From an uncultured Puniceicoccaceae bacterium (lineage in GTDB: Bacteria > Verrucomicrobiota > Verrucomicrobiia > Opitutales > Coraliomargaritaceae): a stretch of DNA of 64,000 nt. A program made the position numbers and the translations under genes. Shown here piece after piece: positions 33,755 through 38,007 of the stretch. The first letter of the stretch is position 1. Each line of letters starts with the position of its first letter. The notes beneath the pieces are model-generated. The model saw only the letters and a list, made by a program, of their open reading frames with translations. It was not told the origin of the DNA and ran no database searches. The stretch is taken from positions 25-64,024 of the forward strand of contig CAJQOS010000025.1 in NCBI GenBank assembly GCA_905479975.1. Direction: 5' to 3'.

Positions 33755-34855
33755 ATGAAAACACTCAAATTCGCAGTTCTCCCCGGTGATGGTATCGGCC
33801 CTGAAGTCATGGAAGTCGCCCTCGACGTCCTTAAAGCCACTGGCGACAAGTTCGGCTTCGCGCTCGATTACGCACATGCCGACATCGGCGGTATCGCGAT
33901 CGACAACCAAGGCGTGGCATTCCCAGACAGCACCAAAGAACTCTGCGAAAAATCGGAAGCGATTTTGTTCGGCTCCGTCGGTGGTCCAAAGTGGGAATGT
34001 CTCCCACCTAAAGAGCAGCCAGAGCGCGCGGCTCTCCTCCCGATCCGCAAGGCTTTCTCACTCTACGCGAACGTGCGCCCGGGTCTCCTTTACCCGCAAT
34101 TGACGGAAGCGTCGCCCCTCAAGGACAACCGTATCCCGAACGGCATCGACATCGTCTGCATCCGCGAGCTCACAGGTGGCATCTACTTTGGTCAGCCGAA
34201 GTCAACCACCACGCTTGAAAACGGCGAAGAGCAAGCGATCGACACGATGGTTTACAAGACCAGCGAGATTGAGCGCATCGCTCAGGTCGCAATCGACACA
34301 GCGAAAGCACGCGGCGGCAGTGTTTGCTCAGTCGATAAGGCCAACGTCCTGGAAACATCGGTTCTCTGGCGCAAAGTGGTCACTGAGTATTTCGCTAAGA
34401 ATGCTCCAGAGATCAAATTGAGCCACATGTATGTCGACAACGCTGCGATGCAGTTGGCGCGCGACCCGAACCAGTTCGACGTGCTCTTCACCGAAAACAT
34501 GTTCGGCGACATTCTTTCCGACGAAATGGGCGTCATCTGTGGCTCTCTCGGCATGCTTGCGTCTGCCAGCCTCGGCGCAGAGAAGAACAGCCTCGGCTTC
34601 CCATTCGGTCTGTATGAGCCATCCGGGGGCACCGCACCCGACATCGCCGGTCAAAGCATCGCCAACCCATGCGCGCAGATCCTTTCTGGCGCGATGATGC
34701 TCCGCTACAGCTTCGGCGAGAACGAAGCCGCAGCCGCAATCGAAGCCGCAGTCGAGAAAGCCGTCACTGGCGGCACACGCACCGGCGACATCGCCTTCGG
34801 CCTAGACTCCGTCGGCACCAAAGAAATGGCAGCTGCCGTGCTCGCGAATCTGTAA
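33755..34855 (+). CDS. leuB: 3-isopropylmalate dehydrogenase
   Basis: LPGDGIGPEV, GSVGGPKW, RELTGGIYFG, VDKANVL, NMFGDILSDE, EPSGGTAPDIAG. Confidence 0.98.
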   Translation: MKTLKFAVLPGDGIGPEVMEVALDVLKATGDKFGFALDYAHADIGGIAIDNQGVAFPDSTKELCEKSEAILFGSVGGPKWECLPPKEQPERAALLPIRKAFSLYANVRPGLLYPQLTEASPLKDNRIPNGIDIVCIRELTGGIYFGQPKSTTTLENGEEQAIDTMVYKTSEIERIAQVAIDTAKARGGSVCSVDKANVLETSVLWRKVVTEYFAKNAPEIKLSHMYVDNAAMQLARDPNQFDVLFTENMFGDILSDEMGVICGSLGMLASASLGAEKNSLGFPFGLYEPSGGTAPDIAGQSIANPCAQILSGAMMLRYSFGENEAAAAIEAAVEKAVTGGTRTGDIAFGLDSVGTKEMAAAVLANL

Positions 34856-34864
34856 CACGAAGCT

Positions 34865-35308
34865 TTTTTAACCGCTGATACACGCAGATGAACGCAGATC
34901 AGACGAATTTCCTCTATTCAGAAGAGACACATGCAATCATAGCTTGCTCGTTTGAAGTGCTCAATGAAATCGGGAACGGCCTTCATGAGAAGATTTACGA
35001 GAATGCTCTTGTAGTCGAATTTGGACTACGAGGCATTCCCGTTTCACAACAGCCCGCATACGATGTTAATTACAAATCTGTAGTCGTGGGAAAATTTATC
35101 CCCGACCTAATCAACTACGAAAAAATTGTAGTTGATACAAAGACCATCGACAAAATCACCGAACACGAACGAGGTAAGATGCTCAATTATCTGAGCATCA
35201 CCGGGCTAAAAGTCGGTCTCATCATAAATTTCAAATATGCAAAATTAGAGTGGTTACGCGTCGCTCTTAGATAATCTGCGTCCATCCGCGTTCATCTGCG
35301 GTTAAAAA
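34865..35308 (+). mobile_element. GxxExxY gene cassette bounded by 35-bp imperfect inverted repeats
   Basis: Left arm 34865-34899 and right arm 35274-35308 are 30/35 identical as inverted repeats; each arm holds three 10-bp units (consensus GAACGCAGAT). Mobility itself is inferred. Confidence 0.6.
34888..35274 (+). CDS. GxxExxY protein (PD-(D/E)xK nuclease-like fold)
   Basis: GLHEKIY motif; IPDL...VDTK; 128 aa. Confidence 0.93.
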   Translation: MNADQTNFLYSEETHAIIACSFEVLNEIGNGLHEKIYENALVVEFGLRGIPVSQQPAYDVNYKSVVVGKFIPDLINYEKIVVDTKTIDKITEHERGKMLNYLSITGLKVGLIINFKYAKLEWLRVALR

Positions 35309-35322
35309 TATCAATTACCATC

Positions 35323-38007
35323 ATGACCTCCTCCGAAATCCGCAAATCCTTCCTCGACTTCTTTGCTTCGAAGCAACACACGATCGTGCCATCGGCTTCG
35401 ATCATGCCGAGCTCGCCGAACTTGCTCTTCACCAATGCGGGGATGAACCAGTTCGTGCCCTACTTCCTCGGTGAGCGTGATGCGCCTTACTCTCGTGCGA
35501 CCGATACACAGAAGTGCATCCGTGCGGGTGGTAAGCATAACGACCTCGAGGACGTCGGCTTCGACACCTACCACCACACATTCTTCGAAATGTTGGGCAA
35601 CTGGTCGTTCGGTGATTACTTCAAGAAAGAAGCGATTGAGTGGAGCTGGGAACTGTTGACGAAGGTCTGGGGCTTCCCTGCCAACCGTCTCTACGCGTCG
35701 GTCTATAGCCCGAGCGAAGGTGATCCTTCTGAGTTCGACCAAGAAGCCTACGACCTATGGAAGGCGATCTTCGAAGCCGAAGGCCTCGATCCGAAGGTGC
35801 ACATCATTAACGGCAATAAGGCAGACAACTTCTGGATGATGGGCGAAACCGGCCCCTGTGGCCCGTGCTCCGAGCTGCACATCGACCTGACTGAAGCAGG
35901 CGACTCGCAGGGCGAACTCGTCAATGCCGATTCCCCGTGGTGTATCGAGATCTGGAATCTCGTCTTCATGCAGTTTAATGCGAACGAAGACGGCACCTTC
36001 TCGCCGCTCGCGGCGCAACACGTCGACACTGGCATGGGCTTCGAGCGTGTGGCTGGCATCCTCGCAACCACCAAGGGCTTTACCGATTTCAGCAATCCTC
36101 CGAGCAACTATAATAGCGACCTGTTTGGCCGTATTTTCGAGAATCTCTCTCGTCACTGCGACCACACTTACAGCTACACGATGCCGGAAGATCGCGACAG
36201 CATGACCGAGTTGGAGCAGAAAGACTGCGCCTTCCGCGTGCTCGCCGACCACATCCGCACCCTTTCGTTCTCGATTGCGGACGGCATCTTGCCAGGCAAC
36301 GAAGGCCGCAACTATGTGCTGCGTCGCATCCTTCGCCGCGCAGTCATGTTCGGCAAGCGCCTCGAACTGCCTGCTGGTTTCTTCTCGAAGCTCGTGCCAG
36401 TCGTGGTGCGCTTGATGTCTGAGCAATTCCCAGAGCTCTACAAGCAAGAGACTGTTATCATTAAGGTGATCTCCTCCGAGGAGACCGCATTCAACAAGAC
36501 GATCGACCGCGGCCTGCAACTCTTTGAAAAGCTCGCAACCAATGGTGCCATAACAGGACGCGAAGCGTTCACACTGTATGATACTTACGGCTTCCCGCTC
36601 GACCTAACCGAACTACTCGGACGTGAGCGTGGACTCGTGATCGACACCGCAGGCTTCAACAAGTGCATGGAGGAGCAACGCGAACGCGGCCGTGCGTCTC
36701 AAAAAAAGACAGTCATCCGCGCACAAGATGCATCCGACGTCGAGCCCACTGAATTCATTGGCTTCGATGAAGCAAATCTGACCGACTGCGAAGTCACTTT
36801 GAAAGAAGTGCAAGTCGACGAAGACGGCAGCTGCTGGGCGATCTTCGACAAGACCCCCTTCTACCCAGAAATGGGTGGACAGATCGGTGACCTCGGCATG
36901 GTCGAAGGCCCGAAGATGTCCTTCCTTGTCACCGACACGCAAAAAGATGCCAACGGCCAAATCATTCATCGCCTCGAGATGAATAAAGATGCAACCGCTG
37001 CAATTGCTCCCGAAGCACTGCCGAGCGACATCAAAGTAAAAGCCAGCGTCTATCTAAAACGCCGTCGTAACATTCAGCGTCATCACAGCGCCACTCACAT
37101 TATTAACTGGGCGCTGCGCTCCGTGCTCGGCGATCACATTCGCCAGGCTGGCTCACTCGTTACTAAGAAGCGCCTACGCTTCGACTTCGCCCACTACGAA
37201 GCAATTTCCAGCGACCAGCTCAAGCAGATCGAAGAGATGGTGAACTTGGCAGTCATCGAAAACGCGCCCGTCAAGTGGTATGAAATCCCGTTCGATGAAA
37301 AGCCGGACGACGTCATGGCTGTCTTCGGCGAGAAATACGGCGCCACCGTCCGCGTCGTCGACATCGGTGGCTTTGCCAAAGAACTGTGCGGTGGCACACA
37401 CGTCAGCTCCACCGGTGAGATCGGCTTGATCAAGATAGTTTCCGAAAGTGGCATCGCTGCTGGCACTCGCCGCATCGAAGCGGTCTGCGGCACTTCAGCC
37501 GCAGCGCTCATGGGCGAAACCTTCGACCAGCTGCATGGCCTAGCCAACAAGCTCAAGTGCAAGCCGGCCGACATCGACGAAAAACTCGAAGCCATGGTTG
37601 CGCAACGCAAGGAGCTCGAAAAAGAGATCAAGTCCCTGCAACAGAAAGCATCCGCAGGCCAAGCCAACGAGCTCATCTCCAAGGCAACTGATATTGCTGA
37701 GGGCATCAAAGCGTTAATCGTCACGGTGGACGCGCCAAATCCAAATGAGATGAAGAACATGGCAACCGCACTCGGCCAAAAGCTGGGTGAAAGTGTCGTC
37801 GTGCTCGCCGCCGAATTCGGTGAAAAGCTCAGCGTCACCGCAGTGGTATCACCTAAGGCAATCGAAGCTGGTTACAAGGCAGGCGACATCGTCCGCGACC
37901 TCACTGGCAAGCTCGGCGGCAAAGGTGGCGGCAAGCCGAACTTCGCAATGGGCGGCGCACCGAATAACGGCAAGCTCAAGGAAGTGATAGGCAACTACTC
38001 GCTGTAG
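35323..38007 (+). CDS. alaS: Alanine--tRNA ligase
   Basis: EIRKSFLDFF, LLFTNAGMNQF, HTFFEMLGNWSFGDYFK, DTGMGFER, ELCGGTHV, GKGGGK. Confidence 0.99.
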   Translation: MTSSEIRKSFLDFFASKQHTIVPSASIMPSSPNLLFTNAGMNQFVPYFLGERDAPYSRATDTQKCIRAGGKHNDLEDVGFDTYHHTFFEMLGNWSFGDYFKKEAIEWSWELLTKVWGFPANRLYASVYSPSEGDPSEFDQEAYDLWKAIFEAEGLDPKVHIINGNKADNFWMMGETGPCGPCSELHIDLTEAGDSQGELVNADSPWCIEIWNLVFMQFNANEDGTFSPLAAQHVDTGMGFERVAGILATTKGFTDFSNPPSNYNSDLFGRIFENLSRHCDHTYSYTMPEDRDSMTELEQKDCAFRVLADHIRTLSFSIADGILPGNEGRNYVLRRILRRAVMFGKRLELPAGFFSKLVPVVVRLMSEQFPELYKQETVIIKVISSEETAFNKTIDRGLQLFEKLATNGAITGREAFTLYDTYGFPLDLTELLGRERGLVIDTAGFNKCMEEQRERGRASQKKTVIRAQDASDVEPTEFIGFDEANLTDCEVTLKEVQVDEDGSCWAIFDKTPFYPEMGGQIGDLGMVEGPKMSFLVTDTQKDANGQIIHRLEMNKDATAAIAPEALPSDIKVKASVYLKRRRNIQRHHSATHIINWALRSVLGDHIRQAGSLVTKKRLRFDFAHYEAISSDQLKQIEEMVNLAVIENAPVKWYEIPFDEKPDDVMAVFGEKYGATVRVVDIGGFAKELCGGTHVSSTGEIGLIKIVSESGIAAGTRRIEAVCGTSAAALMGETFDQLHGLANKLKCKPADIDEKLEAMVAQRKELEKEIKSLQQKASAGQANELISKATDIAEGIKALIVTVDAPNPNEMKNMATALGQKLGESVVVLAAEFGEKLSVTAVVSPKAIEAGYKAGDIVRDLTGKLGGKGGGKPNFAMGGAPNNGKLKEVIGNYSL

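Follow-up and report, generated by a model that had tools for sequence, protein, structure and literature searches.

A 444-bp element at positions 34865-35308 of the window (the whole 64,000-nt stretch of contig CAJQOS010000025.1 analysed here, from an uncultured Puniceicoccaceae bacterium) lies between leuB and alaS and consists of one small GxxExxY gene (gxx) enclosed by two inverted arrays of a short word. Comparison of loci showed this cassette to be a discrete, recurrent unit in at least ten phyla, and showed the arm word to be specific to the clade of the enclosed protein. The cassette class is seemingly undescribed. Judging from these genomic patterns, we give a probability of about 0.5 to the reading that the protein is a nuclease partnered with its own repeats, functioning like the repetitive extragenic palindrome (REP/REPIN)–RAYT or the NTS–Ssn pairs, with another enzyme and another repeat design. 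The protein, probably as a dimer, would recognize the words of both its flanking arms and the gene-less arrays, and would cut at or near them in a hairpin, cruciform or single-stranded form. The partnership would maintain the arrays and occasionally copy arrays or the whole cassette. In the read-through leuB transcript, the paired arms would bury the start codon and keep nuclease expression low.

Anatomy and framing of the cassette

The element and its surroundings are composed as follows.

34865-34899, + strand: left arm, made up of TTTTT and the three 10-nt units AACCGCTGAT, ACACGCAGAT, GAACGCAGAT
35274-35308, - strand: right arm, reading on the minus strand TTTTT, AACCGCAGAT, GAACGCGGAT, GGACGCAGAT
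34888-35274, + strand: GxxExxY / PDDEXK_3 gene, 128 aa, assigned by profile matches
34978-34998, + strand: codons of the GxxExxY motif (G31, E34, Y37; helix 2)
35101-35142, + strand: codons of the PD...(D/E)xK signature, P72-D73 ... D83-T84-K85
34856-34864, + strand: spacer from the leuB stop to the left arm, 9 nt
35309-35322, + strand: spacer from the right arm to the alaS start, 14 nt
33755-34855: leuB (TIGR00169, 465 bits), intact
35323-38007: alaS (TIGR00344, 880 bits), intact

The arms measure 35 nt each, are complementary at 30 of 35 positions (86%), and are separated by 374 nt; 34888-35274 is the sole long open reading frame (ORF) between them. Every left-arm unit contains the word (A)CGCNGAT. 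The 8-nt word of the element is ACGCNGAT, while the outermost unit reads AACC-GCNGAT, its AACC end being conserved between phyla. The ATG at 34888 falls inside the third unit of the left arm, which encodes the first four codons (MNAD), and the right arm begins with the last A of the TAA stop (35272-35274). An 18-mer double unit occurs three times in the window, as compared with 0.05 expected. The GC content of the element is 0.42 versus 0.58 for leuB and 0.56 for alaS, and at third codon positions it is 0.45 versus 0.70 in both genes. The sequence-only reading that preceded this work had quoted the same arms and the same complementarity, and had described the repeat–gene–repeat layout, the undisturbed neighbors and the higher AT content of the element; all of this was reproduced. 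Its proposal that the TTAA at both outer ends is a target duplication failed. The TTAA is present at both ends because it is part of the palindromic end TTAACC...GGTTAA, and the flanks extend this palindrome (TTTTT...AAAAA) without direct repetition. Related copies mostly end in GAACC...GGTTC, the commonest of the varied outer ends among framed loci, and TTAA is not general. Direct repeats were found around none of the copies examined, including two paralogues in the relative G019.

In the same order, 33 of 41 genomes carry GxxExxY genes, with 1-11 copies each, many of which are fragments or contain stop codons; among congeners, the copy number ranges from 0 to 11. At a conservative threshold, 58 of the 82 near-full-length loci of the order proved to be framed by inverted arrays. 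Weaker arrays were discernible by eye at about ten more, bringing the count to ~68/82. For the cross-phylum sample, we used a pattern scan with one genome per species, which covers the subfamily of this protein (alignment A1). The scan yielded 80 close homologues (57-80% identity), and at least ten phyla are represented: Verrucomicrobiota, Planctomycetota, Lentisphaerota, Kiritimatiellota, Thermodesulfobacteriota, Pseudomonadota, Bacteroidota, Acidobacteriota, Binatota, and Hydrogenedentota. Identical framing was observed for 66 of the 80. The arm design is (G/T)AACC-RC-N-R-AT followed by two RRA-CRCNRAT units, and all 66 framed loci carry AACC-CRCNRAT x3. Over the 162 loci of the two sets, the framing rate is 71-83%. 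For comparison, alaS is merely 66-74% identical between some congeners. The 57-80% protein identity between phyla demonstrates horizontal spread, and the conservation of the arms demonstrates that the whole cassette is the unit that spreads. Its limits are defined by the two G019 paralogues, which are alignable only between the outer ends of the left and right arms. The discrete unit postulated from the single locus was thus recovered at the majority of the loci in both sets.

A minority of the genes sit between two complete hairpins, and not within one. At one locus (L100; G019:C1, ~2,543,000), the right arm is immediately followed by another left-arm-like array that has the same ribosome-binding region, which suggests that tandem cassettes are possible. 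In 81/81 loci of the order and in 66/67 cross-phylum loci, the gene has a lower GC content than its flanks, and the GC of the gene still correlates with host GC (r = 0.62-0.76). This persistently low GC may be read as a selfish-gene signature.

Word–protein covariation, the protein and the gene-less arrays

To relate the words to the proteins, we built a maximum-likelihood tree of the 82 proteins and counted parsimony changes on 61 word-labelled tips against label shuffling. A 34-row clade with 100% support is restricted to ...AG words (period 8-9 nt), the clade of this gene carries ...AT words (period 10 nt), and a third clade mostly has ...AAA words. Word position 7 changed 4 times on the tree, against a shuffled mean of 26 (minimum 17). 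The corresponding values were 7 versus 21 for position 5, 11 versus 20 for position 2, and 19 versus 26.7 for position 4. Such position-specific covariation is the pattern expected from recognition by the encoded protein. Physical linkage by itself yields some word–protein correlation, which counts against this interpretation; under linkage alone, all positions would drift alike and the six units of one element would not stay uniform. The suggestion of the sequence-only reading that the protein recognizes the decamer arrays is supported by the covariation of arms and protein that it predicts; from this covariation, we infer the recognition itself.

A generic REP-like palindrome that merely happens to lie beside an unrelated gene has a negligible chance of being the explanation. 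The existence of gene-less arm copies in the source genome (G000) speaks for such repeats unlinked to the gene, a possibility that had been raised at the outset. It is effectively refuted by the framing rate, by the word–clade covariation and by paralogue homology that ends at the arm ends.

The 128-aa protein matched TIGR04256 (GxxExxY) with 117.1 bits (cut-off 35) and PF13366 (PDDEXK_3) with 109.2 bits (cut-off 22). Profile matches were to these two families only, and neither GIY-YIG nor HUH/Y1 RAYT identity was indicated. Residues G31, E34, Y37, P72, D73, D83, T84, and K85 are invariant in A1, the narrower, own-subfamily alignment. In the more diverse alignment A2 (22-58% identity), E34, Y37, D73, and K85 are invariant and G31 is nearly so. 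The AlphaFold2 model (mean predicted local distance difference test score, pLDDT, of 85) has the order alpha-alpha-beta-beta-beta-beta-beta-alpha-beta-beta of a minimal PD-(D/E)xK domain. Foldseek returned only generic PD-(D/E)xK relatives, namely Cas4 SSO0001, lambda exonuclease, Hjc, and tRNA-splicing endonuclease, with weak scores (E ~2e-3 or weaker, TM 0.4-0.55). A sequence search of the PDB with the protein detected no solved structure, and the PADLOC defence-system models gave 0 families at E <= 0.01. Profile scores, signature residues and the AlphaFold2/Foldseek results agree with the family and fold that had been assigned from the letters of the sequence. The accompanying statement that the function of GxxExxY proteins is not known is in line with a PD-(D/E)xK survey, which gives the function of PDDEXK_3 as 'Unknown' (PMC3424549). 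In the literature searched, where the name is rare, we found no study of GxxExxY function and nothing on a word-array framing of these genes. The family is large: phmmer with one query reaches 7,416 clusters at 50% identity.

As compared with the orthologues of G011 and G020, gxx has a dN/dS of ~0.11, a ratio by which the protein is under purifying selection. The protein looks catalytically active, because E34, D73, D83, and K85 are invariant, dN/dS is 0.11 and the predicted fold is nuclease-like. ORFs with two GxxExxY domains in tandem recur (L107 in G016:C3, L109 in G029:C380; P0140, P0186, P0202, and others, of 250-290 aa), which suggests a dimeric enzyme; the protein is probably dimeric. 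The two fusion loci that were examined had no word arms and are perhaps domesticated derivatives.

The source genome G000 (2.85 Mb, 117 contigs, 95% complete) carries one GxxExxY gene only, with CGCNGAT arms. Arrays of the same word were located at about eight other intergenic places of this genome.

C12:13597-13681, C36:537-608 and C105:19878-19952: gene-less hairpins with 12-25-nt loops
C2, C4, C78 and C116: solo or partial arrays
C8:39300-39527: array pair enclosing a truncated Phd/YefM antitoxin ORF

A strict triple-unit pattern had 14 matches in G000, as compared with 1 for the reversed pattern, and 0-19 in the relatives. An unbiased scan of G000 for any triple 7-mer at 10-nt spacing returned almost exclusively this array family, together with a few arrays of the sister words CACGGAT, CGCTTAT, CACAAAA, and CGCGAAG. 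Five congeners share an orthologous hairpin at the C12 site, in which 28-30 of the 30 nt of the arm are identical, while the flanking genes of these genomes have a synonymous divergence (dS) of 0.7-1.0. The few differences in the arm fall on degenerate positions of the units. By this measure, the C12-site array is conserved far above the neutral expectation.

At C8:39300-39527, the CGCAGAT arms surround a 47-aa Phd/YefM remnant, which is flanked by two co-oriented ORFs of ~490 aa corresponding to gatA (Amidase) and gatB of related contigs. In related metagenome contigs (L258-L260), the gatA/gatB junction holds an intact parE-phd pair and then a single CACGAAT-type arm. Judging from this locus, arms can come to frame other cargo.

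Other sequences were also seen in contact with the arrays. A CACRGAT hairpin of 82 nt, its 24-nt loop fixed, is repeated together with at least 30 nt of identical flank on either side (L128, L129, L131 and L133 in G004; L134 and L136 in G001); on account of these flanks, it is a piece of a larger multi-copy repeat and does not represent independent hairpin insertions. A sequence of ~34 nt, TTCGCCCTTYGGTTGAGTGTCGCTKCGCTCGAAC, is inserted within a right-arm unit at two unrelated loci, G000:C78:9086-9165 and the C12-orthologous site in L142 (G008:C43) and L140 (G011:C104), and gives the impression that the arrays are the target of another tiny element. The short repeat GCACAGATCGAAACCGCTTCGCGG.TCCGC.ACAC adjoins decamer arrays at G000:C116:11940-11985, C3:16560-16600, and C105:19975-20010.

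History of the leuB–alaS junction and its predicted transcript

The adjacency of leuB and alaS is conserved throughout the order, and the occupants of the junction differ.

G026: 9 nt between leuB and alaS, empty site
G013: 99 nt, no arms
G000, G011, G020: CGCAGAT arms; G011 and G020 proteins 80% identical to the G000 protein
G004, G007: CACGGAT arms
G008, G021: CACGAAT arms
G019: CGCGAAT arms
G006: CGCGAAT arms, gene 5'-truncated
G009: G008-type element; a deletion between two 'caaca' repeats removed most of the gene and left the arms
G033 (another family): 39%-identical copy
G025: gene-less hairpin of the ...AG type
G003, G012: TIGR02436/PF05635 four-helix-bundle '23S rRNA IVS protein' (IVS, intervening sequence) with TCGAAC-type word arms

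The search for empty leuB–alaS sites in relatives thus returned one empty junction and one armless junction. The gene is partly fixed at this locus, a GxxExxY gene being found here in at least ten congeners, but an empty site and other occupants exist. In G007 (L036:1885-1935; G007:C17), the leuB stop is lost, and the frame extends for 9 codons and ends within the left arm of the cassette.

The dS of gxx relative to G011 and G020 is 0.94-0.98, matching that of the flanks (0.75-1.0). G021 is the closest genome by its flanks (dS 0.32-0.44), yet its gxx is saturated (dS 2.1, dN 0.31). Taken together, these values indicate both vertical descent and replacement. In approximately unbiased (AU) tests, a single clade was not rejected for the nine congener copies (p = 0.54), nor with the G033 copy added (p = 0.48). 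We do not claim independent GxxExxY insertions at the junction, since these tests leave a single origin unrejected. Clearly separate events are only the ...AG hairpin of G025 and the IVS-protein cassettes. The unrejected single origin therefore suggests that a single old cassette lineage has exchanged alleles, decayed and now and then been replaced by other cassettes. On this comparative evidence, the junction cassette is old, mostly vertical and rarely moving, and active mobility is not demonstrable. Of the selfish or mobile cassette proposed by the sequence-only reading, the horizontally spread, recurrent unit stands; no recent movement was seen, and the inheritance at this site is mostly vertical.

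The divergent G021 allele, which differs far more than its flanks, can also be viewed through a homing logic. Here the target would be the intact hairpin and a gene in its middle would protect it, so that empty hairpins would be cut and repaired from a filled copy, spreading the gene. The gene does lie exactly in the 'loop' of arms that are also found with 12-25-nt loops, and in G004 an older CGCAGAT right-arm remnant persists just outside the CACGGAT cassette. PD-(D/E)xK homing endonucleases exist, which likewise counts in favor. We nevertheless consider homing distinctly unlikely: G000 has one gene and at least six unfilled hairpins or arrays of the cognate word, the C12-site hairpin is still unfilled in five genomes, and the minority of genes placed between two complete hairpins are not inside a target.

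The long vertical stay at leuB–alaS, the purifying selection and the lack of recent movement would suit a domesticated system. The arrays would then be operator or iteron-like sites for autoregulation or local DNA organization, without any mobility, and the spread would be ordinary horizontal transfer of a useful gene. Three words per arm do resemble multimeric binding sites. This explanation is highly doubtful, as the invariant catalytic residues favor cleavage and not binding alone, decayed copies, fragments and pseudogenes are abundant in the relatives, the AT bias persists, and a copy number of 0-11 among congeners suits a dispensable or selfish gene better.

Transcription context was evaluated for 58 non-redundant framed loci, at 54 of which the upstream gene was scorable. 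It was co-oriented at 44 of the 54, and both neighbors were co-oriented at 30. The left arm starts a median of ~13 nt past the upstream stop codon. We found no sense-strand promoter-like or terminator-like site in 34600-35500. With no such site there, the cassette is in a position to be transcribed by read-through from leuB, and gxx is probably transcribed together with leuB in this way. In the predicted RNA fold, the arms pair in both the minimum-free-energy and the centroid structure and cover the ATG (-150 kcal/mol, z = -7.3), in accordance with the transcript stem looping out the ORF that had been suggested earlier. In the ...AT clade, the AT at the end of the word and the G-initial spacer make up the start codon, and the arm encodes MNAD or MNTD. 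No match to Rfam was obtained in 34700-35450.

The pairing census of the arms gave 1,253 matches, and among the mismatches 41 of the G.U type, 71 of the A.C type and 78 transversions. A sense-RNA wobble signature was not found; the bias is if anything opposite (41 versus 71), the loci being non-independent. Variable arm positions agreed in register hardly above out of register, so a compensatory register, assessed at 18 loci only, is weak.

Proteins of the IVS type were found to share the framing. TIGR02436 genes are frequent in these genomes; G000 has 8 (e.g., C80:1113-1421 and C53:23769-24083). In the relatives, 19 of 29 TIGR02436 loci lie between inverted arrays made of ~7-nt words, among them TTAGGAG, GGGACAAAG, and GTTGCTA. 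At leuB–alaS itself, the TIGR02436/PF05635 gene with TCGAAC-type arms is intact in G003 (L035:1885-2420; G003:C211) and truncated in G012 (L040:1885-2225; G012:C117). The Coxiella IVS has 428/444 nt, a 28-bp terminal stem, one S23p ORF, and is excised by RNase III (PMC4990558). The analogy to rRNA intervening sequences that was drawn from the letters alone gains from these two junctions, each of which holds an IVS-protein cassette with its own arms.

These data raise an alternative at the RNA level, in which the arms form a long-range stem in the leuB–gxx–alaS transcript. An RNase III cut would release or destroy the cassette RNA and uncouple the flanks, and the nuclease activity would be unrelated to the arms. 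The predicted pairing with the ATG inside the stem, the location of cassettes in operons after co-oriented genes without a sense promoter-like site of their own, the same anatomy of the Coxiella IVS (PMC4990558), the PF05635/TIGR02436 cassettes at the same junction, and the framing of 19 of 29 IVS-protein genes all agree with it. We regard it as doubtful. A stem requires neither tandem words, nor a clade-specific word, nor a conserved AACC end; the census revealed no sense-strand G.U preference, and in-register matching of the variable positions barely exceeded out-of-register matching. In addition, gene-less arrays are conserved between convergent genes, where there is no ORF to loop out.

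We also put forward, as a tentative possibility, a scheme that unites the two families. GxxExxY proteins and '23S rRNA IVS proteins' would be cargos of one undescribed class of operon-junction cassettes with protein-specific word arrays, and the rRNA IVSs would be its rRNA-inserted members. Each cargo would bind its own words, as DNA or as a transcript stem, and this binding would drive the upkeep of the cassette and of its gene-less hairpin derivatives as well as their rare copying. The IVS-protein cassettes at the same junction may explain the origin of ORF-bearing rRNA intervening sequences.

Weighing the proposed nuclease–repeat partnership against known systems

Several observations speak against a nuclease partnered with its own repeats. 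The exact protein was located at leuB–alaS on 23 of 23 public metagenome contigs read, and the 10 loci that were compared showed no variation inside the element; recent mobility was rejected on these grounds, the element being static in present-day populations. G000 contains the word types CGCTTAT, CACAAAA, and CGCGAAG without a resident gene, and its arrays are few, with 14 strict ones as compared with hundreds for REPINs or NTS. The C12-site arrays of G007 and G008 are CGCAGAT, yet the arms at the leuB site are CACGGAT and CACGAAT, respectively. This mismatch is only reconcilable if word positions 2, 4, and 5 are degenerate. The notion that arrays follow the word of the resident nuclease was therefore dropped as a strict rule: it is true for G000 and for G004, where all 11 strict arrays bear the word of the resident gene, and it fails in G007 and G008 at the C12 site. 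Because the unit period varies by clade (8-9 nt in some, 10 nt in others), contact with a single face of B-DNA does not explain the arrays in general. Finally, the non-nuclease IVS-protein family is equally framed, and thus the framing may have a purpose other than recognition by a nuclease. The kind of word nevertheless differs between the two protein families, and this once more suggests that the cargo protein does the recognizing.

The framing provides the GxxExxY family with a first concrete and cheap functional lead, namely the protein tested against its own arms. For annotation, numerous spurious short ORFs and 'intergenic repeats' of Verrucomicrobiota, Planctomycetota and other phyla are explained by the arms.

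Among the known systems, the cassette resembles the ORF-bearing 23S rRNA IVSs of Coxiella and Leptospira (PMC4990558) in its size class (~430-444 nt), in the terminal inverted repeats around one small ORF of unknown function, in being AT-richer than the host and horizontally acquired, and in its location within a transcript without harm to the flanks. The PF05635/TIGR02436 members at the same junction in two congeners add to this likeness. IVSs, in contrast, are located in rRNA helices, from which RNase III removes them, whereas the element lies between protein genes, with a nuclease as cargo (PF13366, not S23p / PF05635) and tandem-word arms. Miniature inverted-repeat transposable elements (MITEs) and minimal insertion sequences share the short terminal inverted repeats, the gene-less derivatives and the arm-keeping internal deletion seen in G009; unlike them, the cassette has no target-site duplication, no transposase of a known class and no multi-copy burst. 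It also departs from homing endonuclease genes, as G000 has cognate hairpins left unfilled alongside the gene, and unfilled ones have persisted in five genomes.

The closest parallels come from repeat–enzyme pairs. Like REP/REPIN–RAYT systems, the cassette combines a small, often single-copy nuclease-type gene flanked by inverted repeats with the dispersal of the same repeat as gene-less intergenic hairpins, mostly vertical inheritance and gene–repeat co-evolution. RAYTs, however, are HUH/Y1 enzymes (IS200/IS605-like), whereas the cassette gene encodes a PD-(D/E)xK protein (PF13366). REPs consist of one palindrome each and number in the tens to hundreds; here, there are three tandem units per arm and ~14 strict arrays, and the cassette gene is usually within one split hairpin. 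The genes of the Ssn GIY-YIG nucleases are flanked on both sides by hairpin repeats (NTS/SRM) that were shown to be cut by the enzyme, and ssDNA cleavage and an effect on transformation were demonstrated (PMC11893778). The cassette shares with Ssn a small stand-alone nuclease family in many phyla, the repeat flanks, and homologues with their own repeat variants. Ssn differs in belonging to GIY-YIG cd10448, in having single hairpins in hundreds of copies, and in its demonstrated cleavage. Because enzyme class, repeat architecture and copy numbers all differ, the cassette is a member of neither the REP/RAYT nor the Ssn system. If GxxExxY proteins are nucleases of sequence or structure specificity whose words depend on the clade, they would be a third case, besides RAYT and Ssn, in which a repeat–nuclease partnership arose independently, and would supply new specificities.

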